Assembly: GCA_963787445.1 (NCBI GenBank)
Contig: CAWBCT010000001.1
Location: 1 to 19,982, forward strand
Direction: 5' to 3'
DNA length: 19,982 bases
From: an uncultured archaeon
Lineage (GTDB): Archaea; Micrarchaeota; Micrarchaeia; Micrarchaeales; CABMGC01
This document shows positions 1,899 to 19,982 of this stretch, in pieces. The notes beneath the pieces were generated by a model. The model was given only the letters and a program-made list of their open reading frames with translations, did no database searches and was not told the origin of the DNA. Each line of letters starts with the position of its first letter. Within the stretch, counting starts at the first letter, position 1. Both the position numbers and the translations under genes were made by a program.

Positions 1899-1940
1899 AT
1901 TAAAATATTAAACAATAACATATTTAATACTATTTAATAC
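1897..1940 (-). promoter_or_regulatory. TATA region with repeated TATTAAA half-sites upstream of the AlbA_2 gene
   Basis: ATATTAAA x2 tandem (1897-1912) and TATTTAATAC x2 tandem (1921-1940). The two pairs are inverted relative to each other, and the minus strand reads TTAAATA at TATA spacing. Confidence 0.45.
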
Positions 1941-1974
1941 AAAACTTGCATAATTAGGGGATAATTTTAGCAGT

Positions 1975-2742: not shown

Positions 2743-2746
2743 GTTT

Positions 2747-3511: not shown

Positions 3512-3512
3512 C

Positions 3513-4094: not shown

Positions 4095-4099
4095 AATTA

Positions 4100-6159
4100 T
4101 TACCTTATGAAGAAAGCCGGATAGCAGGCGTTGATGAACGCGGAGTCGCCGTTCGCCGTCATCACCGTCCCGTAGAACGAGTAGACGCCTATGCTCGGCG
4201 TGCCCGAGATGCTGAGCGCCACAACCGGCGTCCTGGAGCGCGCGTACTGGTTCATGCACTGGCTGACGTTCATGTCGACTATGCCCGGGCCTGAGCAGAC
4301 GTTGCCGGAGGTGTAGACGGTGGTTACAGTGTAGTTGTATTGCGTGGCGTAGGTGGTTATCTCGCCTGCGCAGGTGGAGAGCGCGGAGCTCGTCCCGTTG
4401 AGCGCGATCACCAGGCTTCGCGAGGAGTGCACCGCATCGGTGAACAGGTTCGCCGGGGCGCTGGAGTTCGCAATGGAGGCGACCTCATAGGTCGCAAAGA
4501 CGAAGATCAGCACTATGGCTATCACTATTAGGAACAGCCAGAGCCAGGCGCGGCTCGTCCTGTGGCTCACCTTGAGCTTCCTGCGCGCCTTCAGGCGCAG
4601 GTGGTAGACGAAGAGCAGCGCCAGGACGATCAGGCCGATTATAAGGGAAAGTATGGAGGAGAGGAATGGCGCCGCTGCGATGGTGGACTGGTAGATAGTC
4701 CCTCGACTGATGACATGGACGAGACGAACGGCTCATTTATCGCGCGTGAGATTCCCTCAAGGCTGAAGTCTATGGTGAGGCCGTAGTCCGGGGTGAGGTT
4801 GTCTATGTGGAACAGCTCTGACAGCAATGCAGGCGGATTCTGCACCTGGCCTCCCAGCTGGCCGTTGGCCTGGGACTCCTGGAATGCGAGGGCAGAGGTC
4901 TTGTTTGAGGTGTCGCCGTTGAGCTGCGCGGCAATCAGCACCACCGTGTTGTTACGTGCCTCTCCGAGTAATGAAGAGTAGGTTGCATTTACCTTCAGGT
5001 ACGTGGCCCGAAGCTGCGTGAGAGAGGTCTTCAGCGCATTGGCGTAGGAGGTTATGTTTATCTGGGCGTAGTTGGTCTTCAGGTAGGCATAATCGGAACC
5101 GACAAGGGCGGTCTCGGTCTGGAGCGTTGCGTTCAAGATGTGCTGCCCGAGAAGGGTGCTCGCATTCGTCGTCGTGGAGATGCCCTTGAGCGTGGTGTTC
5201 AGCACCACCGCCAGCTGGGCCGACTTCTGCGCCACGAGAGTGGGAACTATGTAGGCGTTCTCGGATGCGTTGACGCTCTGCGCCAGCACCGCGATCTTCG
5301 CAGAGGTGGGCAGGGAGGAGGCTATCCCGTTCAGCTGCACGGTGACATTGGTCAGCTGCTGCGGCTGGTAGGTAAGGAGGCCGCAGTAGCCTATGGCATT
5401 GCAGTACCAGGGCCCTGAGCTGGAGGTGAGGTTGAAGCTGATGTTGCCGCCGAGCCCGCCGCAGAGCGAGAGGTCTGAGCTGGCGAGCGGAGGGAAGATC
5501 GGGTTCTGGCCAATGGTCTGGGTTATGGTAGAGACGTTGGCGAGCGCATTGAGCAGCTTCTGTATTGCGACGAACGGGCTGGCGGTGCTCTTGGAAGAGC
5601 TGTAGTTGTTGAATATGGTTAGGTTGCTCTCCAGCTGGTTGTACTGGATCTCAAAGCTCGCTATCCCTGTGCCGAGGGTGCCCCCGGGGCCGTCTGTCGC
5701 GTATAACGCCTCATTGCAGGAAGGCACCGAGGCGCAGGACTGACAGAGGTTGGCGTAGGTACAGGTGCCGCGGTCAATTCCCGTCTCTATCAGGCAGTCG
5801 GTAAGGTTGTATGAGGAGCCGTTGAGATAGACGCCTAGTGCCTGGGCGGCTGGTGCGAAGTTGACGGCCTTCAGGCTTGCGCCTTGTATTGTCGGCGTTA
5901 TGATCGTTGCTATGGTGGCTGCATTGAGGATGAAGTGGTAGTCGCTGGTTGAGGTGTTTATCAGGAATACTGGTGAGCTTCCGCTGTAGACCAGAACGTA
6001 GCTGTGGCTGCCGTATGAGATGTTGGTGAACGTTGCGCCGCTTATCAGGGTGCTCGAGACATTATAGCTCTTCAGCAGTGCGGTTACGCCCGCGTTTGAG
6101 GCGCTTAGGACGCCGATAAACAGGACAGCAAAGAGTAAAGAGGTAATTTTACTCGACAT
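4100..6159 (-). CDS. large Cys-rich surface/membrane protein (~686 aa), split by one frameshift at ~4694
   Basis: ORFs 4639..6174 and 4100..4570 join if one base is restored at 4694 (cta tc[n] tac). The stop-free joined frame reads GLSYQSTIAAAPFLSSILSLIIGLIVLALLFVYHLRLKARRKLKVSHRTSRAWLWLFLIV..., i.e. TM-basic loop-TM. Signal peptide from ATG 6159 and many NxS/T sequons. Confidence 0.8.
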
Positions 6160-6185
6160 TAAATCAGTATTCAATATGCAAGTAA

Positions 6186-6193
6186 TATTTAAA
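6186..6193 (-). promoter_or_regulatory. TATA box, probable leaderless transcript
   Basis: TTTAAATA on the minus strand ending ~27 nt before ATG 6159. Confidence 0.55.
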
Positions 6194-6309
6194 TACTCAA
6201 CGCTTCTTTGCGGGAGTCAAAAGACACCGGGAATTTCCAGATGTCGACTGGAATCTCTAAAATATTTGGAATGGGGGATTTTGCTGATGCTCCACGCTGA
6301 AGGGCGGAT

Positions 6310-6367
6310 AAAAGATTAGGGCCCCGATGAGGGGCCCAGAAAAAGGACGAGGCCAAAAAGAAAGGCC
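6310..6367 (-). terminator. U-rich tracts and GC hairpin downstream of the S-layer gene
   Basis: Minus strand: GGCC-TTTCTTTTT-GGCC (6351-6367), CCTTTTTC, then a perfect 7-bp stem GGGCCCC-TCATC-GGGGCCC (6319-6337) followed by TAATCTTTT. Confidence 0.6.
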
Positions 6368-6401
6368 AATAAACTGGGTTCGCGTTAGGCTGCTAGTCCA
6401 C

Positions 6402-9400
6402 TTAGACTGTCGCGTTTGCGAGCAAGTCCTGTATGAACTGGTTTCCTGCCTGTACGGTCTGCGCTGCAGAGTATCCTGCGACCAGGACTCGGTTCGTACC
6501 AAATGCCTGAACCACTACTGAAGAGGTTCCGAATGTCTGGTTGAACGACGGGTTCTGTCCGAAGATCTGTCCTGCTACGGAGTTGACGTACTTGCTTCCA
6601 ACTACGATCAAGGTCGATGCCGAGTTCGCGTTCGAGTCTAGCACTGCCAAAGGCGTTACAGCCGTGTTCAGGGTCGTTGGGACCACTGCCTGGCTCACTG
6701 ACGGAACAGCAGTCAGGTTGCTCAATCCGGAGACACTGCAGCTTGTGGTCGAGAACGCACATGTCGCGTTTACCTTTGCTATGGTCACGTTAGGGATGTT
6801 TGTCGACTGTCCCACCGTGTATGGACCATCTGTCGCAGAGGTCGAGATGCTGTTCGAGGCCGTGCTTGCAGGACCAATTACGAAGGTCAAGCCGTCGATC
6901 GTCTTAGGCTCGTCGTACACAATCGAAGTTGTGGAGATCGAGGCTAGTTCGCCGCCGCGCTCTGTCCTGAAGCCCTGCACTGCCTTCACTATGCTACCCT
7001 GCGAAGACTGGTACTGCACAGCGTTGTTGTTGCCGACTGTTTCGTTTAGCCAGTACAACGGAGTTGAGTCAACTGTCGAGCTGTTCGTGAGACCTATTAT
7101 CACGTTTGAGCCCGGCGTTGTTAGCCCAGGTACGTCTATTTCGTTAACCGTGTACGTGAAGTACTGGTTCCTTGGACCTGCACCTGCAACTGAAGGCGAG
7201 ATCACGAAGTTGACGTTGTTCTGCTCTCCCGTGTATGTTACGGTCGAGACAGTAGGCGCAACCTTGTAGGTGTACTGAGGCACAGAGTACAACAGTGTAG
7301 GCGCAGCAGATACGTATGTGAGCCGCCCTAACATAATGCTGTTCGCGGATACGAGGGACTGAGCGATCAGAGCCGCGTTTGTGGTCAGATAGTTACCAGC
7401 AAGACCGTTTGCTCCAACTGATTGGAACAGAACTGTGTTGGCTGTGTCCCAAACGTCTACCGAAACACCAGGGTTAGGTATCGCATAGCTGACCTGTATG
7501 TTCGTCAGGTTTGCAAGCACTAGGCCGTTTATCGTCTGCCAAACAGGCGAGGTCGAGATTCCGTTAGTGTTGAAGGTAACGGTGTAAGTCGTAGCAGAGG
7601 TCTGCCCGTACTTATAACCAGTTAGCTGCACGTTCAACGGATTGTTTGTCGAAATCGTGTTTGCAGGCAGGCCAGAGTTACCCCAAAGTCCAACAGCTAT
7701 TCCGCCGTTTACCAACGTGAGTACGTTGGATGCGTCTGATGTTGCAACCAAGGCGTTAGGCACGAAGCCGTTGTCCAACTGGTAAGGGTCGAGGTTGTAC
7801 GTCAATGTACCAACGTTTGAGGTCGGTGCAGCCAACGTTCCTGAGCTTACCTGGAAGGCCGTAGGTATCGTGCTTGCCACTGTCAGCAAGTTAACAGGCT
7901 CTGTGACGGTTGTCAAGTTGACCAGCTTTGCCGTAGAGGTGGTTACGATAACTGTCCCAAGTGCGTTAAAGGACACAGAGTTGGGCGTTACAACGGTCTG
8001 CTTTGTCGGGTTCGAGTACGTTACGCCGGCCTGGTATGACGTAGTGAACGTCAGAGGGTCGTAGTTCGCGTTTCCGCTGCTAGGCGCTCCCAGAGAGTCT
8101 CCTGCGAAGCTTACCTTCCAAGCCGCCGGGCTTGTTACGAAGTTAAAGCTGGATCCAGGAGTCATAGTTAACTGGTTCGTTTGGTTCGAGTACAGGATTA
8201 TTCCCTGAAGCGCTGCGTTCGCATTGAATGCAAGCTGTGATACAGCAGCTGTCGACTGGTTCGTTGTCCACCTCAAAGCAGCCAGCCAGCCATTGCCGTT
8301 GGCGCTGTTGAAGTTCTTGCCGCTCGTCACGTTAACCGTGTTTGAGAACAGCTGGATCTTTGCCCACTTCTGGTATGCGTACAAACCTGGGAAGGTCTGG
8401 GATACCTTGATGAACAGCTTCGTTCCAGATGAGTTCACGGTTATGGACTGCTGGTTAGATGCAGGCCCTGCGGACGTTACGTTTGTCAATACACCATTGT
8501 TGTATACAGACAAAGCAGCGTTGGAGAGTCCGTTAGAGTTCGGGTAGGACAGGTCGTTCAAGACTACTGTGAAAGGTCCGCTTGTCACGTTGTGGCCAAC
8601 GTACACGGTCTGGATAGGCGTTGAAGCCTGTGCGAGTGTGACGTTACCACCAACTATGAAGTTGGCAGAGGTTACACCGATGTAGCCGCTTGTCGGAGGC
8701 GTCATTCCATAGACCGTCCAGTTCTGACCGAGCAACTTGAGGTTTGCGTTTGTTGCGCTTCCTCCAGAAGTCACCGGAATCGGCTTACCAAATACTATCT
8801 GGTAGGCGCCGTTCGTGTCGAGCACTGAGATCGAGCCTGTGTTCTGGTTGTATACTGGGAATCCAGCCAGCCAAAGCGACTCGGTTTCCTGATATGTTCC
8901 AGAGCTTGATTGTAGGCCCGGTACCTGCGTTGATGTCAACTGCAGGATGTTATCGTATCCAGAAGAGGTGAATCTCGTGAATGCAACACCGCCGCCGTTT
9001 GTGGAGGCGCTTACTGAGGTTGCAGGCGAGATGCCTATTCCAGCGTACACGGATGTGGCCGTTGGGTTGCTCGTTATTGCGTATGGAGCAGAGCTAGGGT
9101 TCGGGTAGTCGTAGCTGCTTGAGGACGACTGAATCGACTTGGTGTTCGTCAGCGTTCCGGAAGTCAGTACGCCAGGGTTGAGAACTGAACCTATCAACGC
9201 CTGGAATGAGTAAGATCCCGTAGGAACTACTACTCCCTTCTCTCCTAGCCAGACCTGCTGGTTCGAAAGAGTACAGGTAGGTGTGGTTACAACACAGGTC
9301 ACAGAGCTCCTCCCGTTTACCGTTGCGGTAACGTTCTGAGATGTGTGCGCAAGGCTTCCGATGACTGCCGCAATGTTTGCAGCAACGACACCGTCGCTTG

Positions 9401-9557
9401 GTTGTGCTGTAGATCCGACTACAATCTGCACGACTGGTTGACCCTGGCTGTTTATGATTGGTATGTTACCAAAGGTCACTCCCTGTCCTGCAGCTGCAAG
9501 ACCTACTAACAAAGTTGCAGCAACTGCTGCTATTCGCTTCGCGTTTATGCTTTTCAT
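6402..9557 (-). CDS. S-layer protein (S_layer_N/S_layer_C type)
   Basis: Signal peptide MKSINAKRIAAVAA...; N-domain QIVVGSTAQPSDGVVAANIAAVIG; FRTERGG motif; C-domain LIVVGSKYVNSVA...VLVAGYSAAQTVQA. Strongly Thr/Ser/Asn/Val-rich, with about 18 NxS/T sequons by manual count. Confidence 0.9.
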   Translation of the reverse strand: MKSINAKRIAAVAATLLVGLAAAGQGVTFGNIPIINSQGQPVVQIVVGSTAQPSDGVVAANIAAVIGSLAHTSQNVTATVNGRSSVTCVVTTPTCTLSNQQVWLGEKGVVVPTGSYSFQALIGSVLNPGVLTSGTLTNTKSIQSSSSSYDYPNPSSAPYAITSNPTATSVYAGIGISPATSVSASTNGGGVAFTRFTSSGYDNILQLTSTQVPGLQSSSGTYQETESLWLAGFPVYNQNTGSISVLDTNGAYQIVFGKPIPVTSGGSATNANLKLLGQNWTVYGMTPPTSGYIGVTSANFIVGGNVTLAQASTPIQTVYVGHNVTSGPFTVVLNDLSYPNSNGLSNAALSVYNNGVLTNVTSAGPASNQQSITVNSSGTKLFIKVSQTFPGLYAYQKWAKIQLFSNTVNVTSGKNFNSANGNGWLAALRWTTNQSTAAVSQLAFNANAALQGIILYSNQTNQLTMTPGSSFNFVTSPAAWKVSFAGDSLGAPSSGNANYDPLTFTTSYQAGVTYSNPTKQTVVTPNSVSFNALGTVIVTTSTAKLVNLTTVTEPVNLLTVASTIPTAFQVSSGTLAAPTSNVGTLTYNLDPYQLDNGFVPNALVATSDASNVLTLVNGGIAVGLWGNSGLPANTISTNNPLNVQLTGYKYGQTSATTYTVTFNTNGISTSPVWQTINGLVLANLTNIQVSYAIPNPGVSVDVWDTANTVLFQSVGANGLAGNYLTTNAALIAQSLVSANSIMLGRLTYVSAAPTLLYSVPQYTYKVAPTVSTVTYTGEQNNVNFVISPSVAGAGPRNQYFTYTVNEIDVPGLTTPGSNVIIGLTNSSTVDSTPLYWLNETVGNNNAVQYQSSQGSIVKAVQGFRTERGGELASISTTSIVYDEPKTIDGLTFVIGPASTASNSISTSATDGPYTVGQSTNIPNVTIAKVNATCAFSTTSCSVSGLSNLTAVPSVSQAVVPTTLNTAVTPLAVLDSNANSASTLIVVGSKYVNSVAGQIFGQNPSFNQTFGTSSVVVQAFGTNRVLVAGYSAAQTVQAGNQFIQDLLANATV

Positions 9558-9560
9558 GAC

Positions 9561-9605
9561 ATCACTTAATATTTGTGAAAGTAGTTAGAAAGGAAAGTAT
9601 TTAAA
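9561..9605 (-). promoter_or_regulatory. S-layer promoter (TATA) and SD-like element
   Basis: TTTAAATA at 9605-9598; AGTGAT at 9566-9561 just before ATG 9557. Confidence 0.55.
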
Positions 9606-9704
9606 TGCTTGGGTTTGATTTAACATTCTGTTTATACGTTGTTTGGCGTTAACGTCTTTTGCAGTAGTATCATTCTACGATAGACGAACACTACCGACGA
9701 CAGA

Positions 9705-10952
9705 CTATTTTCCATTATTACCGCGTTTTGCCAGTTTGGTGAGAAGCGCATCCCATTTATCCCCTATGGCATCATAGGAGAAGTAGGCACAGAGCCTGCC
9801 GGCGTTGAGGCCGAGGGTGTTCCTCAGCTCCGGGTCCCGCTCCAGGCGCAGGATCTGGGTGACATAACCGTCGGGGCTGTCCTCTACAACACCGTTCACG
9901 TTGTCCTTCACGGCGTACCCCTCAAAGGCGAGGGAGCTGGCTAGGACCGGCTTGCAGCGCATGAAGTAGTCGAGCATCTTCACCTTGATCCCGCTGCCCT
10001 TCATGAGGGGCGCGATGCACAGGTCAGCCTCGTCGATGATCCTGAACTTCTCCTCCTCTGAGACAAATCCCTTGTACTCAACGTTCCCAACGATGTGCGC
10101 GCCCATGCCTGAGCCGACGATTATAAAGCGTTTGTTCTTGAGGCGCGGGGCGATCCTCTGCTCTATTATCTCCATCGCCTGAAGGTTGGGCTCGTGGCGG
10201 GCGTTCCCTATGAAGAGTATCGTACTTATCTTCCTCGCAGGCCTGCGGGCCGGCTTCTTGAGCAGATACTCGGGAGGGCAGGAGGCTGCAGGGACTACGA
10301 ACAGCTTTCCCGAGGCGCCCCTGAAGCGCGAGAGGGCGAGCCTTTTGTCGGCATCCGTCAGGAGGGCTATGGCGTCGAAGCCGTTCACCATGCGGGAGTA
10401 GACCCCCCAGGAGAAGTCGTGGAAGCGCGCGCTCCCGAAGGAGACCGCGGAGCGCTTCAGCGGGTTGTCCCTCCGGGCCGAAGCCTCGAGGCGTATCTTC
10501 AGCGAGTTCTCCACCACCCTGAAGTCATCGGTTATGGCTATGCAAAGGGTGTCATGGGTGCTCTTGTACCTTAGGATGAAATCGGTCAGGAGCCGGCCCA
10601 GGGTGATGATGGAATCCGGGGCGTACTCGTCCAGGGCCTCCTCCAGCTCCCTACTATTATTCATTATATAATAGGAGTACTGACTGCCGAAGGCTGCAAG
10701 GGAGAGGTAGTCAAGCGCCCTTACCGATGGGGTCCTGCTGTCAGAGGAGACGTTGCTCTGAACGACCTCCTCTTCGTACCTGCCTTCTGAGATCTCCTGC
10801 GCCTCCCTTCCCAGGGAGAAGACCTTGATCTCATAGCCCCTGGCGCTGAGTATCGGGGCCAGGTGGACAAGTATGTGGGTCCCGCCGACCTTGCCGGGAT
10901 GGACCTGCTCGGGAAATAGTATGGCGATGCGCTGCTTTTGGGGTTTGGTCAA
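9705..10952 (-). CDS. glycosyltransferase family 4 (GT-B)
   Basis: N-terminal VGG motif; C-terminal ILFIGNARHEPN...DLCIAPLMKGSGIKVKMLDYFMRCKPVLASSLAFEG; TTG start. Confidence 0.85.
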   Translation of the reverse strand: MTKPQKQRIAILFPEQVHPGKVGGTHILVHLAPILSARGYEIKVFSLGREAQEISEGRYEEEVVQSNVSSDSRTPSVRALDYLSLAAFGSQYSYYIMNNSRELEEALDEYAPDSIITLGRLLTDFILRYKSTHDTLCIAITDDFRVVENSLKIRLEASARRDNPLKRSAVSFGSARFHDFSWGVYSRMVNGFDAIALLTDADKRLALSRFRGASGKLFVVPAASCPPEYLLKKPARRPARKISTILFIGNARHEPNLQAMEIIEQRIAPRLKNKRFIIVGSGMGAHIVGNVEYKGFVSEEEKFRIIDEADLCIAPLMKGSGIKVKMLDYFMRCKPVLASSLAFEGYAVKDNVNGVVEDSPDGYVTQILRLERDPELRNTLGLNAGRLCAYFSYDAIGDKWDALLTKLAKRGNNGK

Positions 10953-10962
10953 GTGATCATCA

Positions 10963-11685
10963 TTATCGGTGCTGCTCCGAGGCCTTCAGCCTTTCCAGCA
11001 CCTCGTTGTACTGCTCCATGTTGTTTACGGTGTGGAACTCGTCTATGAAGTAAAAGCAGAGGCGCCCGGTGCCGGCGATCTTGGCGAGGAACTCCCGCTC
11101 GAACGAGAAGCTCTCCAGGTCGGGCATCTTTCCCGCCGCCTCGCGGCTTACGATGTACATCCCGGCGTTTATCGTCCCCGCGACCGGCGTAGGCGTCTGC
11201 GGCTTCTCCACAAAGCTGGTCACGAACACGCCCTCGGTCTTGATGAACCCCCAGCTGGAGACGTCCTCCATCCTGACCGCGCCGATGGTCACGAGGGCCT
11301 TCTCCCTCCTGTGCAGCTCGTACATCGCGTCGAGGTCGAAGGCGTAGAGCGTGTCCGCGTTGAGCACCAGCACGTCCGGCTTGTCGCGCAGGGAGAGCAT
11401 GGCCCGCTTTATCGCGCCGCCGGTCCCGAGCGGCTTGTCTTCGTTGGAGAAAGTTATGCTGGATGAGAAGGAGCCGCGGTTCGACTCGAAGTACCCGGTT
11501 ATCTTGTCGGCCATGTAGCCCGTGGAGAGGATTATGTTCTTTATCCCGTAGCGCTCAAGGCTGCGCACCAGGTGCTCGAGAAGCGGCCTGCCGTTTATCG
11601 GGATCATCGCCTTGGGCAGGTTATCGGTGAGCGGACGAAGCCGCGTGCCCTGGCCCCCGGCCAATATTATAGCTGTGTCTAGCAT
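10963..11685 (-). CDS. NDP-sugar pyrophosphorylase / nucleotidyltransferase (NTP_transferase)
   Basis: AIILAGGQGTRLRPLTDNLPKAMIPING, PLGTGGA, LNAD, FVEKP, INAGMY; ATG 11685 preferred to the track start at 11709. Confidence 0.9.
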   Translation of the reverse strand: MLDTAIILAGGQGTRLRPLTDNLPKAMIPINGRPLLEHLVRSLERYGIKNIILSTGYMADKITGYFESNRGSFSSSITFSNEDKPLGTGGAIKRAMLSLRDKPDVLVLNADTLYAFDLDAMYELHRREKALVTIGAVRMEDVSSWGFIKTEGVFVTSFVEKPQTPTPVAGTINAGMYIVSREAAGKMPDLESFSFEREFLAKIAGTGRLCFYFIDEFHTVNNMEQYNEVLERLKASEQHR

Positions 11686-11799
11686 GAATACACGTTTGAA
11701 GCAACGCACAAAGCGCGTTGCGCTCCTCCATTACGTAAAAATACGTAACAACCTATAAAAATGTATTTATGTCATTAAACCATATAGGCTGGGAGAGCA

Positions 11800-12519
11800 A
11801 TGAGGAACCGCGTTAAGACCGGCATCGCCGGCATAGACAACATGCTGGACGGCGGCATACCGGATGGGAGCCAGGTGATACTCGCTGGCGGTCCGGGCTC
11901 GGGAAAGACCCTCATAAGCTTTGAATTCCTGTACAAGGGCGCGAAGGAGGGCCAGGTGGGAGTGCTCTTTTCCTTTGAGGAGGAGTCGCACCGCCTCATA
12001 GAAAATGCGAAGGACGCGTTCACAGATTTCAACGACATAGACCAGCTCATCGCGGACAAGAAGCTAGTCATCTTCGGCTCGGAGGAGACAAAGCCGTTCA
12101 TCCAGAAGGACAACGAGCAGGTCGCCTACGCATTCGGGAAGATCATCTCCGAGCTGCAGAACAGGATCGAGGCGGCGGGCGCGAAGCGGGTGGTGATAGA
12201 CTCAATCTCGTTCGTCAAGCTGTTCATAAAGGACGAGTTCGACTACCGCGCTCTCTCCATAAGCCTGCTTACCGTGCTCAACAGGGCCAACGTCACGACG
12301 ATAGTCACCATGGAGATGGAGAGCCAGGAGAAGATGAGCGTCAGGTTCCCGCAGGAGTTCTTCGTCTACGACGGTCTGCTGATGCTCTACTTCGGCGGGA
12401 AGGACGCGGAGAACAGGATGCCCATGATAGAAGTTATGAAGATGCGCGGCACGCGCCACAACTACCTCGCCATTCCCTACGAGGTCACATCGCGCGGGAT
12501 CAACGTTCTTGCAGTCTGA
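11800..12519 (+). CDS. single-domain KaiC-like RecA-superfamily ATPase
   Basis: RVKTGIAGIDNMLDGGIP, Walker A GGPGSGKT, SFEE, Walker B VVIDS, KMRG arginine-finger motif. Confidence 0.9.
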   Translation: MRNRVKTGIAGIDNMLDGGIPDGSQVILAGGPGSGKTLISFEFLYKGAKEGQVGVLFSFEEESHRLIENAKDAFTDFNDIDQLIADKKLVIFGSEETKPFIQKDNEQVAYAFGKIISELQNRIEAAGAKRVVIDSISFVKLFIKDEFDYRALSISLLTVLNRANVTTIVTMEMESQEKMSVRFPQEFFVYDGLLMLYFGGKDAENRMPMIEVMKMRGTRHNYLAIPYEVTSRGINVLAV

Positions 12520-12538
12520 AGCCTTGCGAGGAACAGGG

Positions 12539-14140
12539 TTAGCTGTTTATCTTATACAAGTCCACTTCGACGTTCATGCCGTTGTAGCTACTGTTTAGGG
12601 AGGCGTTGTCCCTTATCGTTTCAATCTCGGTAAGGTTGCAGTAGGGTCTTACCCAATTGTCAAATACTGTTTCGTACAATGACCGGGAGTGGTTGGCGTA
12701 GATTAAGGCAAAATATGCATTTGGCGCGCCCGAATTGCAAGTTGCATTTGCCCAGCCCGCAACGTTGGCCTTCTCCGAGAAGTCCAATGGGCTTAGGCTG
12801 AGGTTCCTGTTGTACGAGGAGATAAACCTCAGCATCGAAAGTGCTGTTCCGTTGTCCGTTATGAATAAATTGGTCCTGCCGTTCGCCGAACTTGTAAAGT
12901 AGTTGAGCAGTTTAGAAAATGTGTTGAGGTCTCCCCTTATTGAAATGTTGTAGTTGTACAGCGTGGAGTATAGGGGTATGTTGGTTAGGATTATTGCCAG
13001 CACGAACAGGGCGGCTATGTAAACGGGCAGCGCCCTTGACCTGGACCCGATGGCTCTGGAGATCTTTAATATTGAATAGGAGGCCAGCACCGCGGTCGGC
13101 ACAGACACCAGTATGAAATAGCGTGAAATAACTGTTATGAAACTGTAGGTTGCCAGAGTGACCGTTCCAAAGAACAGGTACAGAAAGACGCCCCAAAGAA
13201 TTACTGAGAGGAAAATAACATTCATCTCCTTTCTAATTAGTCCGATGGCACTACCGAGAATAGCGAACAACGTTATCAACCCAAGCGGGAATACTTGCGG
13301 ATCCATGAACGGCGCGAACGGACTGGTTGGACTTGAATAGCCAAGTAGGACAGTTGCGAGGGAGCCGATATTCTTACTCAGATTCGTCGGAGAGATCACG
13401 TTCTGGTTTTGACCGTAGGAGACAATCGCAGTGGTGGGGCTGCTGCCTGCAAGATAAAAGATTGCTGCGTAAATAAGCATGAAGGCAATCAGGCCGTAAA
13501 TGGCGTACGCCAGCGCAAACGTTTTTTCCGTGTGTCTTTTTCGTTTGTACTCAAGCACTCCATGAATTCCGATGCAGCATAGGAAGAACAGGACGTACAA
13601 GAACCCTATCATCTTGACATACACTATGAGCGCGGCGGAAGCTCCTGAGAGGAAATAAAATAACCTCTTGCTCTTTTCATGCTGCGCGTAGACGAAGAAC
13701 AGGATGGAGAAGCCGGCAAGCATCCCGACTGCCATGTCCGGAAGGACCCGGGTCGAATAACCTACGACAAAAGGCGCAGTGGCGAGAAGAAACGCGGAGA
13801 GGAGCCCCGCGTACTCCCCGTAAAGCTTCCTGCCCACCAGGAATGCAAGAAGTATGAGTATGACGTACTCGATAAGCGCCGGGAGTACGCTTGCAAATAT
13901 GCTGGTTCCGAGCAGCTCAAACGACAGGGCGAGGGAGGCCGGGAGCAAAAACCCATAGGCGTACGGGCTTTCTGCCAGAGTGAAGTTTCCTTGCAGTAGC
14001 TGATGCCCGTAGGTGAGGTAGGCTCCATCATCAAAAGAGTAAAAGGGACCGGAATACAGCAAACAAGCTAGGCCCGATCCGCCGATTATAATCGCTGCCA
14101 GTATTAGGTAGGTCAGCTGGGCCTTCTTCATCTTCCACAC
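12539..14140 (-). CDS. GT-C fold polytopic glycosyltransferase (GT39/GT83, PMT/ArnT-like)
   Basis: First-loop FDDGAY acidic motif, many TM helices, TRVLPD, YVK, SRYFI, and a soluble C-terminal domain with sequons; alternative ATG at 14131. Confidence 0.8.
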   Translation of the reverse strand: MWKMKKAQLTYLILAAIIIGGSGLACLLYSGPFYSFDDGAYLTYGHQLLQGNFTLAESPYAYGFLLPASLALSFELLGTSIFASVLPALIEYVILILLAFLVGRKLYGEYAGLLSAFLLATAPFVVGYSTRVLPDMAVGMLAGFSILFFVYAQHEKSKRLFYFLSGASAALIVYVKMIGFLYVLFFLCCIGIHGVLEYKRKRHTEKTFALAYAIYGLIAFMLIYAAIFYLAGSSPTTAIVSYGQNQNVISPTNLSKNIGSLATVLLGYSSPTSPFAPFMDPQVFPLGLITLFAILGSAIGLIRKEMNVIFLSVILWGVFLYLFFGTVTLATYSFITVISRYFILVSVPTAVLASYSILKISRAIGSRSRALPVYIAALFVLAIILTNIPLYSTLYNYNISIRGDLNTFSKLLNYFTSSANGRTNLFITDNGTALSMLRFISSYNRNLSLSPLDFSEKANVAGWANATCNSGAPNAYFALIYANHSRSLYETVFDNWVRPYCNLTEIETIRDNASLNSSYNGMNVEVDLYKINS

Positions 14141-14201
14141 TGCTTTAGGAAACCAAGTTAAAGTCTAAAAACCTAGTTTAAATTGATTGGCCCGGGCAGG
14201 A

Positions 14202-14891
14202 TCAGATGTTGTTCAGCCGCAGCTTTATCTCCTCTCCGCTGAGCTTTGTTGTGAGGAGGGGAATGCGCTCGATCTGCGAGATCTTTATCGCAAGCTTGTC
14301 CACCTGGTCAAGGTTCTGTATGACGACAAGCTTGGGCTTTATCGGCGCGACCCTTACGACCACCATGGGCGACCGGCCGGTGCTCACCTGGTCGAAGATG
14401 AAGGCGCGTTCGCTTGTCGAGCCGAACAGCCGCGGGTACTCCGCTGGAGAGATCTCAAGTATTATCCGGAGGCTGTCAAGAAGCGTGTAGCCGAAGAGCT
14501 TCATGTTGTCCAGAACGCCCGGGTTCGTGACTATCTTGGCGTCGATCAGCCTGGCCAGGTCGGTCCCGCTTATGGGCGAGCCGAAATCGTGAATGTAGTA
14601 GAATGAGCCCTGGTCGTCCTTCTTGCTGAACTTGTCCAGGTTTCTGGCAACCTCCCCGCCGCGCTTCTCGTCTATGGAGAAGAGTGCGTTTATGAAGCGC
14701 TTGATCACGCCCACGCCCGGGCTTGCCCGCCGGTTGCCTTCGTAGTCGCTGATGGTTGAGGTGGAGATCTTCAGGTACTTGGCAAGCTCGACCTGGGAGA
14801 TCCCGAACAGCTCCCGCCACTTCTTCATCGTGCTGCCCGGTGTTTCCGATAAAGTAATCTCGCCGGCGATGCGCTCCTGGAGTGTGTCCAT
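14202..14891 (-). CDS. archaeal XRE-family HTH transcriptional regulator (COG1709-like)
   Basis: RIAGEITLSETPGSTMKKWRELFGISQVELAKYLKISTSTISDYEGNRRASPG and C-terminal ERAFIFDQVSTGRSPMVVVRV. Confidence 0.88.
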   Translation of the reverse strand: MDTLQERIAGEITLSETPGSTMKKWRELFGISQVELAKYLKISTSTISDYEGNRRASPGVGVIKRFINALFSIDEKRGGEVARNLDKFSKKDDQGSFYYIHDFGSPISGTDLARLIDAKIVTNPGVLDNMKLFGYTLLDSLRIILEISPAEYPRLFGSTSERAFIFDQVSTGRSPMVVVRVAPIKPKLVVIQNLDQVDKLAIKISQIERIPLLTTKLSGEEIKLRLNNI

Positions 14892-14918
14892 GTAAACAAT
14901 TAATAATGGAGGGCGGAG

Positions 14919-14926
14919 TTTATAAA
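14919..14926 (-). promoter_or_regulatory. TATA box
   Basis: TTTATAAA ending ~28 nt before ATG 14891. Confidence 0.55.
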
Positions 14927-14960
14927 TACGATTGGAAAACTTCTTGAAAATAAGCAGTTA

Positions 14961-15379
14961 TTATTTTTCTTTGTTGTATGCATTGAAGTAATGCTTTCCG
15001 CGGAGTATGAACTGCTGCTCTATCTTCTTAGGCGAGAAGTACCTATTAGTGAACTCCACCACCTTCTCCCTGCTGTAGGCCTTGCAGCTGTATACGTCTA
15101 TGCTTATGAAATTCTTCCTTGATAGGGTGTGAATAACTATCGATGAATCTGCGAGAGGCACCCACCCGCTGAGACCAGCCTTGTCTGGGAAGGATTTCCT
15201 GTCGGTCCTGAAGATTGAGGGAGGGGCCTGCTTCTTCATGCCTATGAAGTCGACTAGGTTGTCCAGATAGCTGTAGCAGTGGTCGAGCTCGCCGCACACC
15301 TCGGGCTTGCAGTCGTAGCAGTCGAGCAGCAGCTCGTAGCCGAACACCCTCAACTGCTTAGCTTTCTTGGCCGTGCCAT
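14961..15379 (-). CDS. pyruvoyl-dependent AdoMetDC/SpeD-family decarboxylase, divergent
   Basis: FGYELLLDCYDC, GLSG...LAD/SSIVIHT, ISIDVYSCK, RG. The track start is TTG 15353. ATG 15379 gives MATAKKAKQLRVFG if one base is restored at ~15375, and it sits 24 nt after TTTAAGTT. Confidence 0.8.
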
Positions 15380-15435
15380 CACAGAAAGAATAGAGAGCCC
15401 TAAACTTAAATAGCTTGGGCTTTCCTTTCGGATCC

Positions 15436-15657
15436 CTAACCCAATATTTCTATTACCTTGTCCCTGCTAGTGGTGCCTTTTATTATCTTTATGTTCGCCT
15501 TTTTCACATTGAAATGTGATGAGAGGGTGGCGATAACGGCAATGTTTGCTCGACCCTCCATCGCTTTTTCTCTAATTTTGAGTTTGTAGCTTACAGGGGT
15601 CAGCTTCTCCAGCGTTTCGACTTTGGAATTGGGAACTACTCTTAAGTTTATTATCAT
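15436..15657 (-). CDS. DUF167 / UPF0235 (YggU-like) protein
   Basis: RVVPNSK...KAMEGRANIAVIATLSSHFNVKKANIKIIKGTTSRDKVIEI. Confidence 0.88.
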   Translation of the reverse strand: MIINLRVVPNSKVETLEKLTPVSYKLKIREKAMEGRANIAVIATLSSHFNVKKANIKIIKGTTSRDKVIEILG

Positions 15658-15711
15658 CTCAGCATCTTGTGTGTAGTTTTACTAAACTTTAAGACCTGCA
15701 AGAGATATAAG

Positions 15712-16512
15712 TCAAGGAAGCATTTTCTCCCTTCGTATCAGCCTGTCTGAGAGCGCAAGGAGCAGCAGCGCCACGAAGAGTATTATGACTGCCTGGCCAA
15801 ACTCCACGAGTATCGCAGTGCCAAAGGAGAACACGAATGGGATGAAGTATCCGGGTATCACTCCGACCAACCCGAGGCTCACGGCAAGCGGCTGGTTGCC
15901 TCCGGCCCTGTTCTTCTGAAGTACGCTGAACGTCATCATCATTGTTATGATGAAGGCCACCGTTGATACTGCTATAAGCGCGCCGATGCCCAGGATAATC
16001 AGCATTATTGGCAGGTAGGTTGTTCCGAAGCTCGCAAAGGAGTACAGCAGGTTCAGAGCCCCGAAAGTCAGCAAATAAGACGCCGCTATCAACAGGGCGG
16101 CCTTCAGGTATCGTGCGTATATGTCACGCTGGCTCATCCCCAACGAGATGAGATACTCAAGGACACCGTTGTTCTTGTCATAAACGAACAAGATCACCAT
16201 CGGGGTTGTCAGCATCAGCATCGGCATCACGGTGAACGGGACTGCGAGCAAAGGCAGGCCCAGGCTGCTGTTGGCGCCTGTCTCGGCGCTCATGATCGCG
16301 CCGATATTTACGCCATGGCTTGAAGAGTTTGTAGAGTTTGAAGGGTTTGAAAGGTTGGTGTAAGTGGGGCTGAGAAAAAGGAGCACTCCGAGCCCTATGA
16401 TTATCGCTATTGCAATGTAGAACTTATTGATGCCCACGGCCCTCTTTGCAGTGACTATTATCTGGTTTTCCTTGAGCTCTACGCCCTTGCCCTCATTTTG
16501 TGGTTTTGCCAT
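15712..16512 (-). CDS. ABC exporter permease subunit (ABC-2-like)
   Basis: About six TM helices; YDKNNGVLEYLISLGMSQRDIY loop typical of ABC-2 permeases; TAATG overlap with the ATPase stop. Confidence 0.75.
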   Translation of the reverse strand: MAKPQNEGKGVELKENQIIVTAKRAVGINKFYIAIAIIIGLGVLLFLSPTYTNLSNPSNSTNSSSHGVNIGAIMSAETGANSSLGLPLLAVPFTVMPMLMLTTPMVILFVYDKNNGVLEYLISLGMSQRDIYARYLKAALLIAASYLLTFGALNLLYSFASFGTTYLPIMLIILGIGALIAVSTVAFIITMMMTFSVLQKNRAGGNQPLAVSLGLVGVIPGYFIPFVFSFGTAILVEFGQAVIILFVALLLLALSDRLIRREKMLP

Positions 16513-17381
16513 TACTTACCACCATCACCAAACAGTTCCTGAAGGGGATTGTCGAGCTCCTTCATCTCCGTAACAAGTATGCCCTTTTCAATTATCTTTC
16601 TTAGGGCAAGGCCTGCCTCTTCTGGCTTCGATACGTTGAGCACGTAGTAGCCGCTGCTGTCCTTCTTCGCGTCAACGATCTTCGTGATGTCCTTGGAGGC
16701 CTTTATCCCCACTCTATAATCCTTCGACCGGACGTTCGCAATCTTGTCAAACAGAGCCAGCTTGCCATCCTTTATCAGTATAAGATTCATGCCTATGTCA
16801 GTGGCTTCGTAAAGATTGTGCGAAGAGTAAAGTACCAGCTTATCTTTGCTAAGTTTCAGTATGAGATCCCTTATCTCCTTGGAAAGGCCGGGATCGAGGT
16901 TTGCAGTCGGTTCGTCAAGCAGGTAGACGTCCCTGTCCTTGAGGAAGACCTTTGCTATGGACACCCTCTTCTTCTGGCCCTGCGAAAGATCTATCACCCT
17001 CTTGTCCCGCAGTTCATTGAGGCCTAGCAGATCGATTGCCTTCTCCGGATCTCCCCCTTCCATCCCGGCATAGAACCTAAGTGCATTATATACTGTCATC
17101 TCCTCCGGGAGCGCATTGTAGTGCGAGAGGTAGTTTATGTTGCTTCTAAAATCATTTGAGGATTTTATGTCCTTTCCATCAAGAAGTATCCTGCCCGAGA
17201 TGGGCTCCAGTATGCCCGCTATTGTCCTGAAAAGCGTAGTCTTTCCCGCACCGTTAGGTCCAAGTACAACATATACGGATGATTCCTTTGCAGTGAAGCT
17301 GATGTTATGCAATACTGGCTTGCCATTGTAGCCCGAGTCAACGTTATCCAATTCAAGCGTATGCAAAAAGACACCAGACAC
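16512..17381 (-). CDS. ABC transporter ATP-binding protein (exporter type)
   Basis: Walker A GPNGAGKTT, signature LSQGQKKR, Walker B YLLDEPT, H-loop SSH. Confidence 0.93.
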   Translation of the reverse strand: MSGVFLHTLELDNVDSGYNGKPVLHNISFTAKESSVYVVLGPNGAGKTTLFRTIAGILEPISGRILLDGKDIKSSNDFRSNINYLSHYNALPEEMTVYNALRFYAGMEGGDPEKAIDLLGLNELRDKRVIDLSQGQKKRVSIAKVFLKDRDVYLLDEPTANLDPGLSKEIRDLILKLSKDKLVLYSSHNLYEATDIGMNLILIKDGKLALFDKIANVRSKDYRVGIKASKDITKIVDAKKDSSGYYVLNVSKPEEAGLALRKIIEKGILVTEMKELDNPLQELFGDGGK

Positions 17382-17463: not shown

Positions 17464-17502
17464 AGTGGACTCGGCGGACTTCCGTATTTGAGTACGTTGT
17501 AC
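17464..17502. repeat. 39-bp degenerate direct repeat, copy 1 (tRNA-Ala 3'-end-like core)
   Basis: AGTGGACTCGGCG-N12-TGAGT-N4-TGTAC; the minus-strand core reads CGC CGAGTCC A CT. Confidence 0.7.
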
Positions 17503-17573
17503 TAACACGTGCATAAACGGACAAACACCATTAGAATATAGTTTTCATTCGGGGTACCACACAAAAATATATT

Positions 17574-17924
17574 CTATCTGCTTTTATAGCCAAAACGTCT
17601 TTCATATTCTTTATGAGAGAACCATTCTAATAGAATGGAAACAATTTCTACATCAGAACCTTGAAGAGTATAAATCAAACGCCATCCATTTGGCAAGTCG
17701 TATTTCCTAAGGTTTGTAATGGAAAACTGTTGTAAGTATGTCTTAGGCCAGAGTTTACTTGGTAACTTTATTCCTATTAGAGGATTTTCCTTTAAGTCGT
17801 CTATAGCCCTCTGTATGTAAGATGCCAGTTCCTTCTCTTCGAACTTGCCAGACTTTAACTCTAAGAAAGAGTTGTAGAGTGATTGGTCTATAAATACAAC
17901 TTTCTTTATTCTATCACTTTTCAC
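17574..17924 (-). CDS. RelE/ParE-superfamily-like putative toxin
   Basis: 116 aa; AIDDLKENPLIG...NLRKYDLPNGWRLIYTL...ILLEWFSHKEYERRFGY fits the RelE-fold pattern (L..NP..G, R.IY, C-terminal H..Y). Confidence 0.65.
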   Translation of the reverse strand: MKSDRIKKVVFIDQSLYNSFLELKSGKFEEKELASYIQRAIDDLKENPLIGIKLPSKLWPKTYLQQFSITNLRKYDLPNGWRLIYTLQGSDVEIVSILLEWFSHKEYERRFGYKSR

Positions 17925-18204
17925 ACAATCACGCCTTCCTTCCTTATCTTTTCGGCAAGTTTAGGGTTCCAGAGCCATGTGATTGTTTATCCTCTTCGAC
18001 TATTATCTTGCCTGAATATTCTAGATAATCAAGAATGGTTACAAAGGTAGTCCACATAACTTTCTTAGGAAGTAGATGCCATATTTGCGTTATTGTCTTG
18101 TCGCTTTTATATTTGTACAGTGCCTTTTCCACCATTAATATGGTGTCCAATCGTGGCAATCTATCTAAGTTCCTAGGTTTGAATTCCATTAGTTCCTTTT
18201 CCAC
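17921..18204 (-). CDS. small winged-helix-like protein, putative antitoxin (~94 aa after correcting one frameshift)
   Basis: PRLDTILMVEKAL...TQIWHLLPKKVMWTTFVTILDYLEYSGKI. Restoring one A at 17986-17988 gives DKTITWLWNPKLAEKIRKEGVIV*, whose TGA overlaps the toxin GTG (GTGA). Confidence 0.65.
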
Positions 18205-18212
18205 TTAATCAA

Positions 18213-18251
18213 CTGATAAATATATCAGATGATAAATATATAAACTTTTGG
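18213..18251 (-). promoter_or_regulatory. BRE/TATA plus palindromic operator of the TA-like pair
   Basis: CCAAAAG-TTTATATA (18251-18237); inverted repeat CTGATA-N4-TATCAG (18213-18228); TGATAAATATAT repeated at 18214 and 18230. Confidence 0.6.
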
Positions 18252-18285
18252 TTGGAGAGTCAGAACCGCTTCTTCGTAAAATAAA

Positions 18286-18324
18286 AGTGGACTCGGCGTA
18301 TGTATCCAACTGAGTTCACTGTAC
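18286..18324. repeat. 39-bp degenerate direct repeat, copy 2
   Basis: Same consensus and spacing as copy 1 (27/39 identical); 18286-18296 pairs with 18310-18320 as an 11-bp stem with two G-T pairs. Confidence 0.7.
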
Positions 18325-18520
18325 AAGATTATGGTGGCTTTCTTATGTTAATTTAGCTTTTAACGAAAGATAAAAAGGCCCTGCAGTAAGACGACGGTTA
18401 TATATTTGATTTCGGTTTAAGAACATTATGGACTATGGGGCAAAGTTTGAACCAAAAGGTAACAGAATTATTCATGGTACAGGATTACTTAATTAACATG
18501 CCTCTAAAGTTCTTATCAGA

Positions 18521-19848
18521 GTGTTGCCGATGGAGAAGAACAAATTAATCAGTATTCCAGTAGCAACTGCTGTGGGGCTAGGAGCCATAATCGGCGCAGG
18601 GATATTCGTACTTAGCGGCACTACTATAGCATTAGCCGGAGCCGATGCCCTCTTCGCATTCGTAATAGTAGGGATTGTGGCTCTGATACTTGCCTTTGAG
18701 CTTGGCGAACTCAGCTCCCTCATGCCTAATGAAAAGGGTGCATCATATTCGTACACGTATAAGGCATTCGGAAGCAGGGTGGGGTTCATAACAGGTATAT
18801 TCAGGTACCTCAGCCTTGCCATTTCTATCTCCGTGGTCTCGTTGGGTTTCGGGGCCTATCTTGGAGCATTCTTGGAATGTCCGTAAACGCCTATTCGATA
18901 CCATTCGGAATAGTTCTTATAGGGATACTTTCAGCTGTAAACCTTATTGGAGTTAAAAAAGCCGCCGAAGCTGATTCAGTCCTTGTTGTGATAAAAATAT
19001 TGATTCTCTTAATATTCATAGGCTTTGCAATCGTGGTTGCGCTGGCGGATCTATCGTCTATTGCGTCGCATTTCGCTTTCAGTGCATCCACGGGAAATCT
19101 CAGTGACATCTTCGTGGCAGGCATTGCCATAATCTTCGCCTATTCGGGCTTCCAGTCCATAGCCAGCATATCTGGAAGGATAGAGGGAGGTGCGACTGGG
19201 GCTTCAAAAGCCCTAATCGCGGCTGTGTTGATAAGCTTAGTGCTATACGTGCTGGTAGTGTTTGGATTGCTGCTGCTTCAACCGGCATCGGCATACACGA
19301 TCTCGGCAGACCGTTGACTTCCGCATTGGCCGGCAATAGCTCATCCTCATGGCTTTTGATCCTTGTAGGCATTGGTGCACTCATAGCGACAGCATCAGCA
19401 ACACTTGCTTCAATATTGACCGCTTCAAGATCAATCTACCAGATGAGTGCTGATGGTCTGCTCCCAAAGATACTGATGAAATTCAACAAGGATAAGGGCA
19501 CTGCAGAAAACGGTGTAATCATATCTGCAGTGATAGGGGTTGCCATGTTATTTGCAGGAAACATATACATCGTCGTCTCCATAGTTACTTTCGACCTTAA
19601 TGTTCGACTATCTGCTTTTAGGATTTGATATCATTCACTTCAGGAGGCAGGGCCGCAAACCAAGCTTCAGAATGCCATTCTACCCATACCTGCCGGTGAT
19701 AGGCGTAATAATTCTGATAATCTTCTTCGTAAGCCTGCCAACTGAGGTGCTTGCGGTAGGCATAGCGATGACCGTAGCCTTAGTGCTATTATACCAGTTT
19801 CTCAGTAGGTCAAAGAGCAAGAATGGCAAATTTGTAAAGCTGTTTTGA
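18521..19848 (+). CDS. APC-family amino acid permease, interrupted by three frameshifts (sequencing error or recent pseudogene)
   Basis: GAIIGAGIF, ELSSLMPNEKGASYSY, FAYSGFQS, SRSIYQMSADGLLP, FRMPFYPYLP spread collinearly over four ORFs; shifts at ~18872, ~19311 (restores ADPL) and ~19595. Confidence 0.85.
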
Positions 19849-19906: not shown

Positions 19907-19982
19907 ATGGACGTCGAGATCATTGGATTATTCTCCATTCATGATAACGGTCAGACGACACGTGAGCGTGGGTTCGGGTTCA
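19907..19982 (+). CDS. possible 5' end of a gene running out of the window
   Basis: ATG 19907 with an open frame MDVEIIGLFSIHDNGQTTRERGFGF to the window end; too short to identify. Confidence 0.2.
   Translation, partial: MDVEIIGLFSIHDNGQTTRERGFGF

Follow-up and report, generated by a model that had tools for sequence, protein, structure and literature searches.

Two short repeats near the right-hand end of the window (the whole 19,982-nucleotide stretch of DNA analysed, which is the entire contig C1 of a 19-contig, 1.05-Mb micrarchaeal assembly) probably represent attL-type junctions, formed as a tRNA-Ala(TGC) gene received two site-specific insertions in turn at its 3' end, and the units that the repeats delimit are probably non-autonomous integrative cassettes lying in tandem. 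The core of the repeats originates from the tRNA; the sites lie next to tRNA genes, recur in other genomes and form arrays; the units have no integrase, their arms are common to an element that does have one, and the cassettes are reused as modules. Catalysis would be provided in trans by a family of 390-400-aa integrases, and the units may be mobile still.

Two repeats, two units and a tRNA-Ala gene

Read on the plus strand, the right-hand part of the window consists of flank, core, P arm, toxin-antitoxin pair, P' arm, core, P arm, permease and P' arm, followed by tRNA-Ala. Its features are as follows.

16512..17381, minus strand: ABC-transporter ATPase gene, in the left flank beyond the array
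17464..17515, plus strand: copy 1, the distal attL-type junction (core and P arm)
17466-17477, plus strand: core of copy 1, TGGACTCGGCGG, the last 12 nt of tRNA-Ala
17574..17924, minus strand: gene of a predicted RelE/ParE-fold toxin, 116 aa, from Pfam and fold search
17944..18204, minus strand: antitoxin-like gene, 86 aa in the window, upstream of the toxin gene
18205..18249, minus strand: AT-rich region upstream of the pair that contains, at 18208-18239, a tandem direct repeat of 16 nt; candidate promoter and operator of the pair
18250..18287, plus strand: P' arm of the toxin-antitoxin cassette, tRNA-proximal, of 'alpha' type, ...GCTTCTTCGTAAAATAAAAG
18286..18333, plus strand: copy 2, the second attL-type junction (core and P arm of the next unit)
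18288-18298, plus strand: core of copy 2, 11 nt of the tRNA end
18521..19848, plus strand: amino-acid permease gene carried by the second unit, split into 4 ORFs in the window
19955..19982, plus strand: right terminus of the second unit, ...GTGGGTTCGGGTTCA, which adjoins the tRNA-Ala(TGC) 3' end

The window has exactly two occurrences of the 13-mer AGTGGACTCGGCG, which start on the plus strand at 17464 and 18286, and TGAGT and TGTAC come after it at equal offsets in both copies, 27 of 39 positions being identical. This bears out the earlier sequence-only reading, which had described repeat blocks at matching offsets 822 bp apart, and its observation that the copies enclose exactly one two-gene unit (ORFs of 116 and 86 aa) holds as well. 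Judged on the window alone the repeat pair is not compelling. By our own arithmetic 20 kb should contain about three exact 13-mer pairs, and a further one (D11) is present in the same 4 kb; of the 26 bases that come next, 14 agree between the copies (binomial p ~0.003). The weight of the pair comes from outside the window. G+C content is 0.34-0.39 between the copies, against about 0.45-0.55 on the left, and no terminal inverted repeats were found in the units.

The 'AG' preceding the tRNA-derived part of the repeat varies in other genomes, and the true core is therefore TGGACTCGGCG(G). The TGAGT and TGTAC blocks of copy 1 fall inside a conserved element-side arm, the P arm, and may represent an integrase-binding sequence. 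The P arm of copy 2 is more diverged than that of copy 1, and this copy agrees less with the consensus although it ought to be the younger of the two, which counts against the reading given above. Model R1 (see below), in whose training set both copies were included, gives copy 2 35.4 bits (18288-18333), as against 50.3 bits for copy 1 (17466-17515). Blocks resembling TGAGTAnGnnnTAC are present on both sides of the core.

Contig C2 of the assembly opens with a minus-strand tRNA-Ala(TGC) gene, identified with ARAGORN, whose plus strand reads A-TGGACTCGGCGGGATTCGAACCC; the minus-strand tRNA-Ala ending CGCCGAGTCCA that the earlier reading had suggested seeking thus lies immediately to the right of the window. 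C1 ends ...GGGTTCGGGTTCA and C2 starts ATGGACTCGGCGGGATTCG... (also given as ATGGACTCGG...), and the two ends joined make a stretch that runs unbroken on contig C9 at 5013-5041. C2 would then follow C1 directly, a junction deduced from the matching ends and from C9 rather than from a spanning read. Elsewhere in the assembly the 11-mer TGGACTCGGCG is confined to the window copies and to three places on C9, namely duplicates of both window copies and a third fragment. In both window copies the displaced tRNA 3' fragment (17466, 18288) is in direct orientation with the nearby intact gene, as befits att junctions.

Positions 1-5026 of C9 correspond to 14959-19982 of C1 at 99.56% identity. Beyond TGGACTCGGCGGGA at C9 5028 there is a 12.3-kb element encoding a 393-aa tyrosine integrase (PF00589, 7e-23), the start of its gene being 94 bp from the contig end, so that the order on C9 is window sequence, third tRNA fragment, integrase element; the tyrosine recombinase that had been looked for to the right is thus found in this strain variant. 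Since the C2 and C9 continuations differ, the assembly contains two variants, one in which the window sequence leads to the tRNA and one in which it leads to a tRNA fragment and the integrase element. C1 also overlaps C13 (96.5%) and C12 (94.4%), which makes the assembly multi-strain. Both window units are present in both variants. The extra 12.3-kb element, sitting exactly at the tRNA on the 99.6%-identical C9, indicates that the site was used recently.

The 116-aa product of the first unit matches PF05016 (ParE_toxin) with an E value of 6.6e-5 and 23.8 bits, the cut-off being 23. An AlphaFold model of it was built from a 5-sequence alignment (pLDDT 75), and in a fold search of the PDB all the matches listed are chains of toxin-antitoxin entries or RelE/ParE/YoeB/HigB-type toxins (best E 3.8e-4); this predicted model is the only source of the fold assignment. 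No sequence match to the pair was found in solved structures or NCBIfam, nor to the antitoxin-like protein in Pfam. The antitoxin-like gene encodes 87-99 aa in relatives and on C9, where it overlaps the toxin start; in the window a 1-base deletion near 17985, at which position public contigs have an inserted T, alters the C-terminal tail of the protein. A toxin homologue and the upstream gene are adjacent at all four of the further loci matched to both (in G015, G028, G036 and G037). The two genes are accordingly predicted to form a type II toxin-antitoxin pair of the RelE/ParE superfamily. The G028 pair adjoins a tRNA-Asp fragment of ~35 nt, 2.9 kb from the intact tRNA-Asp gene; a homologous toxin gene is also present, with no att site, on a 781-bp contig of G012 (L007).

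The permease of the second unit is whole on C9 (442 aa; PF13520, 6.4e-46), and its region in the window shows indels relative to public contigs at 18863, 19310 and 19597. The right end of this unit weakly resembles the 'GGTTCAATGGACGTAG' type of P' arm. Neither window unit contains a PF00589 match, and no N- or C-terminal integrase fragments were found flanking them, so that the units do not have the layout of SSV-type (type I, 'suicidal') insertions; lacking an integrase within the unit, they are not autonomous. The integrase-less mini-cassette of the earlier reading is borne out as far as the missing integrase gene goes, while its mobilization would have to take place in trans.

The site and its units in other Micrarchaeota

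We searched for the spaced pattern TGGACTCGGCG-N12-TGAGT-N4-TGTAC, the 21 fixed bases of which were taken from the two window copies; about 0.3 chance matches would be expected in the 596 Gb searched (our own arithmetic). Five loci were found in genome_contigs, four of them in assemblies of 'Candidatus Micrarchaeota' and the fifth on a duplicate contig (2.5 kb, same sequence, labelled Planctomycetota), and one contig was found in metagenomes. The site consensus is TGGACTCGGCGG-ACGTCAGTnnTTGAGTAyGaTGTACAAACA, and similarity extends over ~50 nt. Of 118 genomes of the family, 18 (in 8 of 30 genera) have a match to R1, a 51-position model based on sequence only, as does one of the 16 genomes taken from two other families; the model finds no site in the 10 other genomes of the window's own genus, another point against the main reading. 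The window's assembly contains a second, weaker site at 86964 of contig C5, 849 bp from a tRNA-Ala(CGC) gene and separated from it by a PIN-domain gene. Further copies of core and arm, which the earlier reading had proposed as a check, thus exist in other genomes, as tandem arrays at tRNA-Ala genes, and the conserved non-tRNA arm is real: ~50 nt long and common to cassette sites and an integrase-bearing element.

Two other ideas about the site were dropped. The viral_contigs collection yielded no match to the spaced pattern or to a 20-nt arm consensus, and a free viral or plasmid form was set aside. A structured RNA or DNA element was likewise abandoned: RNAalifold on nine copies gave just a 4-bp ACTC/GAGT helix (-0.42 kcal/mol), with no compensatory pair or covariation.

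At the 24 loci that we oriented and analysed for layout, most sites lie 0.7-1.9 kb to the left of a minus-strand tRNA-Ala gene (CGC, TGC or GGC) or of the next site. The tRNA end deviates from TGGACTCGGCGG at four of these loci, and at three (L055, L063, L067) the site core has the same change; the exception, L064, has a core without the tRNA's deviation, a one-base difference. Because the core follows the local tRNA in three of the four cases while the arm stays conserved, the core is host sequence and the arm element sequence, as in att junctions.

Between the boundaries of these loci we extracted 31 units, 16 of them of 720-1104 bp; another four, at 242-287 bp, are short and non-coding. The 106 ORFs located inside or beside the units were scanned with Pfam: 14 have PIN or PIN_2, eight have Fic and one has MazF, three units encode DUF4258 and/or DUF2283, and no ORF matches an integrase (PF00589). 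Other products are a pyroglutamyl peptidase, a low-molecular-weight phosphatase, PfkB and an SLOG protein, and array L056 carries one IS200-type Y1 transposase gene. Most genes point toward the tRNA, so that the site lies 3' of them.

All-against-all comparison showed the same units, at 83-93% identity, in differing order between genomes. One PIN_2 unit recurs in L021, L057, L072 and part of L056, a second in L066, L070 and L071; a PIN unit, a RelE/ParE-like unit and a Fic unit recur also. The Fic unit directly adjoins tRNA-Ala(CGC) in L060 and L132 and a TGC-type gene in L059, and occupies an internal position in an array at tRNA-Ala(GGC) in L063. In G021 the distal junction of the Fic unit has decayed, the core being gone and just the ...GATGTACAAACA arm end left. 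Two candidate features were rejected. The left-flank sequence '...GACCCGCTTGCGG...CCCAAGAAGTTTTA' had been taken for a cassette end; it encodes the N-terminal part of a second integrase family (described below) and is a remnant of an older insertion. The alpha P' arm had been considered as a copy of the tRNA T-arm; in alignment it matches the stretch between core and integrase start in integrase elements.

Integrases, mobility and alternative origins

The clearest link between the cassettes and an integrase is provided by an element of 8.8 kb and 32-43% G+C in genome G096 (locus L076), which is arranged in the order R1-type junction, element, integrase, alpha P' arm and 3' part of tRNA-Ala.

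903: R1-type junction, 26.6 bits
8449-9633, minus strand: 394-aa tyrosine integrase
9709: core; the 3' part of the tRNA-Ala gene reads TGGACTCGGCGGGAGTCGCACCC...

The 75-nt arm that leads from the integrase to the tRNA, ending ...CTTCCTCGTAAAGCGAAAA, aligns with the stretch on the left of the following core in Fic, PIN and DUF4258 units that have no integrase, and with 18250-18287 of the window; the latter also aligns with the P' arm of an integrase element in G082. G096 is the single example in which an integrase element is enclosed by the same arms, the R1-type arm being demonstrable there only: the distal ends visible in the C9 element and in that of G114 have arms that differ from the R1 type, and the other integrase-element contigs stop before the distal end.

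The integrases of G096 and C9 are 40% identical over 383 residues and belong to the 390-400-aa family, which is present in 36 of 118 genomes. At 22 of 30 loci a same-strand tRNA gene, or a tRNA-Ala 3' part missed by ARAGORN, lies ~65-115 nt past the matched integrase start; at the others the contig ended early, the match fell short of the gene start, or no tRNA was found. The tRNAs concerned are Ala, Gly, Pro, Thr, Val, Gln, Asn or Ser. An integrase gene beside a tRNA is the layout of classical, non-split archaeal integrases, according to the available part of a review (PMC8371274). The family is not enriched in site-bearing genomes, being present in 5 of 18 as compared with 31 of 100 others among assemblies that are 50-97% complete, and most arrays therefore lack a detectable cognate integrase. 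The second integrase family, of ~300-350 aa, is found in 63 of 118 genomes (a tally that includes the unpublished genome G062), often beside tRNA-Ala, with a tRNA overlap of ~45 nt or more and different flanks. Relatives do have an integrase family with the SSV-type property, attP inside the gene, at tRNA-Ala.

The picture that we favour would be as follows. Each junction would combine the displaced last 11-12 tRNA bases, from the host, with an arm of ~50 nt from the inserted element. Because their arms are homologous to the ends of integrase-bearing elements, the window units would be non-autonomous relatives of such larger elements, in which a 390-400-aa classical (non-split) tyrosine integrase sits directly beside the tRNA; an integrase of this kind, supplied in trans, would most likely insert the units and might excise them. 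New insertions would enter the regenerated tRNA, and units would therefore accumulate in tandem, the youngest nearest the tRNA. The modular reuse of units appears to argue for mobility, and the missing co-occurrence with the integrase would argue against current dependence on it.

Part of the window stretch is contained in seven public runs, four of which were compared as assembled contigs. These contigs bridge both copies in the integrated form, and they contain no excision joints or circles of the window units; such absence from contigs is no evidence against mobility. No empty site or presence-absence difference was seen for either window unit, and the other genomes of the window's genus gave no match to the ABC-ATPase or to the toxin-antitoxin DNA (the tally of this search, and a match to the ABC-ATPase, include the unpublished genome G038; neither G038 nor G062 carries any central conclusion). 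A genus-level search around another array revealed no clean empty site; it turned up the G021 Fic unit with its decayed distal junction, and contigs broken off at the tRNA.

These results bear on an alternative that we consider unlikely though worth weighing: the units could be immobile fossils of full-length integrase elements, shortened by internal deletion, with no transposition of small units, their toxin-antitoxin and Fic genes being kept because loss is counter-selected and cassettes being shared through vertical descent and homologous recombination between arrays. Such a history would suit the silence of the assembled contigs as to excision or circles, the want of an integrase excess in site-bearing genomes and the single integrase element with a demonstrable R1-type arm, as well as the decayed junction of the G021 Fic unit, the frameshifts in the antitoxin and permease of the window and the presence of both units in both strain variants. 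It sits poorly with the clustering of 16 of the 31 units at 720-1104 bp and with the retention of both arms in most units, which random internal deletions would not be expected to produce; nor does it readily accommodate homologous arms around unrelated cargos, one Fic unit at three tRNA-Ala isoacceptor loci, or a unit order that varies by genome.

Two further explanations would dispense with the 390-400-aa integrases. An integron-like platform, with the tRNA-Ala 3' end in the role of attI and the ~110-nt P'-core-P sequence in that of attC, would be served by a dedicated recombinase, for which the ~300-350-aa integrase family or host XerA would be candidates. The cassettes do have a suitable character, being short, mostly single-function, promoter-carrying and toxin-rich, with the site 3' of the genes, and the second integrase family is widespread and often placed beside tRNA-Ala. 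That family, however, overlaps the tRNA for longer and has other flanks, no recombinase gene accompanies the arrays with any consistency, and the site forms no conserved hairpin beyond the 4-bp helix; both arms match the element of the 394-aa integrase family, and the element integrases score far under the cut-off of the integron-integrase model (31-39 bits for TIGR02249, cut-off 265). We regard this platform as improbable. Least credible of all, and barely to be entertained, is that a transposase or casposase-like enzyme aimed at the tRNA end generated the 11-12-base repeats as target-site duplications. Covariation of the core with the local tRNA in three of four informative loci would be expected of it too, and L056 does contain its Y1 transposase gene, but that IS200-type gene is the only exception to the absence of transposase and Cas1 from the units, the units lack terminal inverted repeats, and the same ends bound an element whose only recombinase is the tRNA-adjacent tyrosine integrase; the one-base difference between core and tRNA at L064 also speaks against it.

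Successive tRNA-targeted insertion of non-autonomous cassettes thus remains our preferred explanation. A broader and more tentative possibility, which we hold less likely than not to be correct in full, is that Micrarchaeota carry a tRNA-anchored counterpart of the integron, in which classical tyrosine integrases of passing elements shuffle mini-cassettes. The tRNA-Ala 3' ends would be the fixed landing pad and P' arm, 12-nt core and P arm together a bipartite, portable signal of ~110 nt, at which promoter-carrying cassettes (toxin-antitoxin, Fic, transporters, small enzymes) would be inserted, excised and reshuffled, with exchange between genomes and from one to another of the three tRNA-Ala isoacceptor loci. 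If this is true, tiny, host-dependent archaea would have an exchangeable pool of defence and addiction genes. More generally, units that still move would amount to a simple system for capturing genes, in a group of which hardly any mobile elements are known, and would supply a compact att site of ~110 nt together with the 394-aa integrase that matches it; fossil units would still record precisely how reduced genomes acquire toxin-antitoxin and Fic genes and retain them.

Comparison with known systems

Integration at tRNA genes, and the tandem islands that result, are textbook matters, and the mechanism by which the units originated is ordinary tRNA-targeted site-specific integration with tandem accretion. 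DPANN is the archaeal group that includes Micrarchaeota. The window array and its relatives resemble the tRNA-borne islands and integrative elements of classical (type II, non-split) archaeal integrases in having the displaced 3' fragment distal and the regenerated target gene proximal, in the integrase gene that lies beside the regenerated tRNA, and in the direct-repeat arrays produced by repeated use of one gene, as far as the available portions of the sources describe them (PMC4383910, PMC3146451, PMC8371274). Tandem islands at one tRNA or tmRNA gene appear there in Islander-type mapping and in the ssrA islands of Dehalococcoides (PMC4383910, PMC3146451). The present arrays differ from them in that most units are of 0.7-2 kb and without integrase, that the identity segment is of 11-14 bp, and that the hosts are Micrarchaeota. 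In the literature that our search returned and in the accessible part of the 2021 review of archaeal tyrosine recombinases, in which the term DPANN occurs 0 times, no such arrays are described in Micrarchaeota or other DPANN (PMC8371274).

The CIMEs (cis-mobilizable elements) of Streptococcus, in the accessible parts of their descriptions, are likewise att-bounded units without recombination genes whose att sites are related to those of an autonomous element, and they undergo site-specific tandem accretion with an integrase-bearing element, an integrative conjugative element, which is exactly the layout of the C9 variant (PMC5704250, PMC7563491). They are bacterial, usually measure several kb and are regarded as conjugative elements that have decayed, whereas the units described here are cassette-sized modules that recur in several genera, with conjugation genes not involved.

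The resemblance to integron cassettes lies in the tandem arrangement of 1-2-gene cassettes, the 3' site, the many toxin modules and the shuffled order; the units differ in having neither an attC-like hairpin nor a linked integron integrase, and in a tRNA-end anchor with a site conserved in sequence rather than in structure. Chromosomal integron arrays are themselves rich in toxin-antitoxin cassettes. The pdif modules of Acinetobacter plasmids, which belong with other elements that use the host Xer recombinases, are small, integrase-less and often of toxin-antitoxin type, and lie in series between XerC/D sites. They share with the present units this small, integrase-less format, short recombinase sites and the serial arrangement; here, in contrast to XerC/D sites, a tRNA end forms the core, and the arms are matched by those of integrase-bearing elements. 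The distinctive feature here is a recurring, sequence-defined family of cassette-sized, integrase-less and toxin-rich units, arrayed at tRNA-Ala genes in very small archaeal genomes of 0.5-1.2 Mb.

Strain variants in assembly G000

The left half of the window (1-10477) is found again in the same assembly on contigs C13 (96.5% identity) and C12 (94.4% identity), and the bin is therefore a mix of several strains. A 99.6%-identical strain variant of the window, on contig C9, carries an integrase element at its tRNA-Ala site:

C9 (locus L001) 5028-17354: 12.3-kb element

Besides its 393-aa integrase, the element contains another, short integrase-like ORF (9032-9745), an endonuclease resembling Holliday-junction resolvases (PF10107) and numerous ORFs without family assignment; its distal arm differs from that of the window. 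Comparison of the window with C9 and with the public contigs covering each place reveals four single-base indels, all of them within the two cassettes: one (17985) alters the tail of the antitoxin, and the other three (18863, 19310 and 19597) break the permease into four ORFs. Mistakes in the consensus of a mixed-strain assembly, or true decay in one strain, could account for these indels.

Cassettes and elements at other tRNA loci

A second, weaker cassette site of G000 adjoins tRNA-Ala(CGC):

C5 86964-87885 (locus L055): 849-bp unit with a PIN-domain gene

The core of this site has the variant of its own tRNA-Ala(CGC), TCTGCGG. Elsewhere on C5, at about 400633, lies a tRNA-Ala-like 3' end in which TGGACTCCGCGGGATTT... 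is followed by about 17 extra bases and then TTCGAACCCGC; ARAGORN made no call there, and the place may be a pseudogene, or a tRNA-Ala gene whose T-arm region carries an intron.

One locus, L020 (JAGWZR010000317.1), is a 2.5-kb contig assigned to a Planctomycetota assembly. Around the site it is identical over 160 bases to the Micrarchaeota contig L022, and its spacing to tRNA-Ala(CGC) is the same; the contig was probably misbinned. Locus L015 (G028, contig C2, 4867-7830), from another family of the same order, has a homologue of the toxin-antitoxin pair found in the window. The homologous pair adjoins a tRNA-Asp 3' fragment of about 35 nt, the intact tRNA-Asp being 2.9 kb away; elements targeting a different tRNA carry the pair as well.

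Fic and DUF4258 cassettes have in common a long inverted repeat, ACCCCTACA ... TGTAGGGGTA, which flanks an AT-rich spacer upstream of the cassette genes and may be an operator:

L060, L059, L064, L069 and L074: inverted repeat, immediately left of the alpha arm (one type of tRNA-proximal P' arm)

A second tyrosine-integrase family

Besides the integrases of 390-400 aa, a second tyrosine-integrase family, whose complete open frames measure about 290-370 aa, is present in 63 of the 118 family genomes:

L108-L125 (e.g. G098:C31, G119:C9, G015:C22): second-family loci
L076 372-962: second-family locus

Fragments of tRNA-Ala of about 45 nt, followed by remnants of this family of about 250 nt, alternate in arrays with cassettes of the R1 type, the site model of tRNA-Ala core and P arm (L072, on G085:C3, 6940-9133; L021, 4825-5112); two integrase systems therefore alternate at one tRNA. 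Twenty loci were examined, and in most of them the second-family open frame continues through the adjoining tRNA gene (Ala, Val, Leu or Glu). Such a read-through is the hallmark of split ('suicidal', type I) integrases, a class described as a development of hyperthermophilic archaea (PMC8371274).
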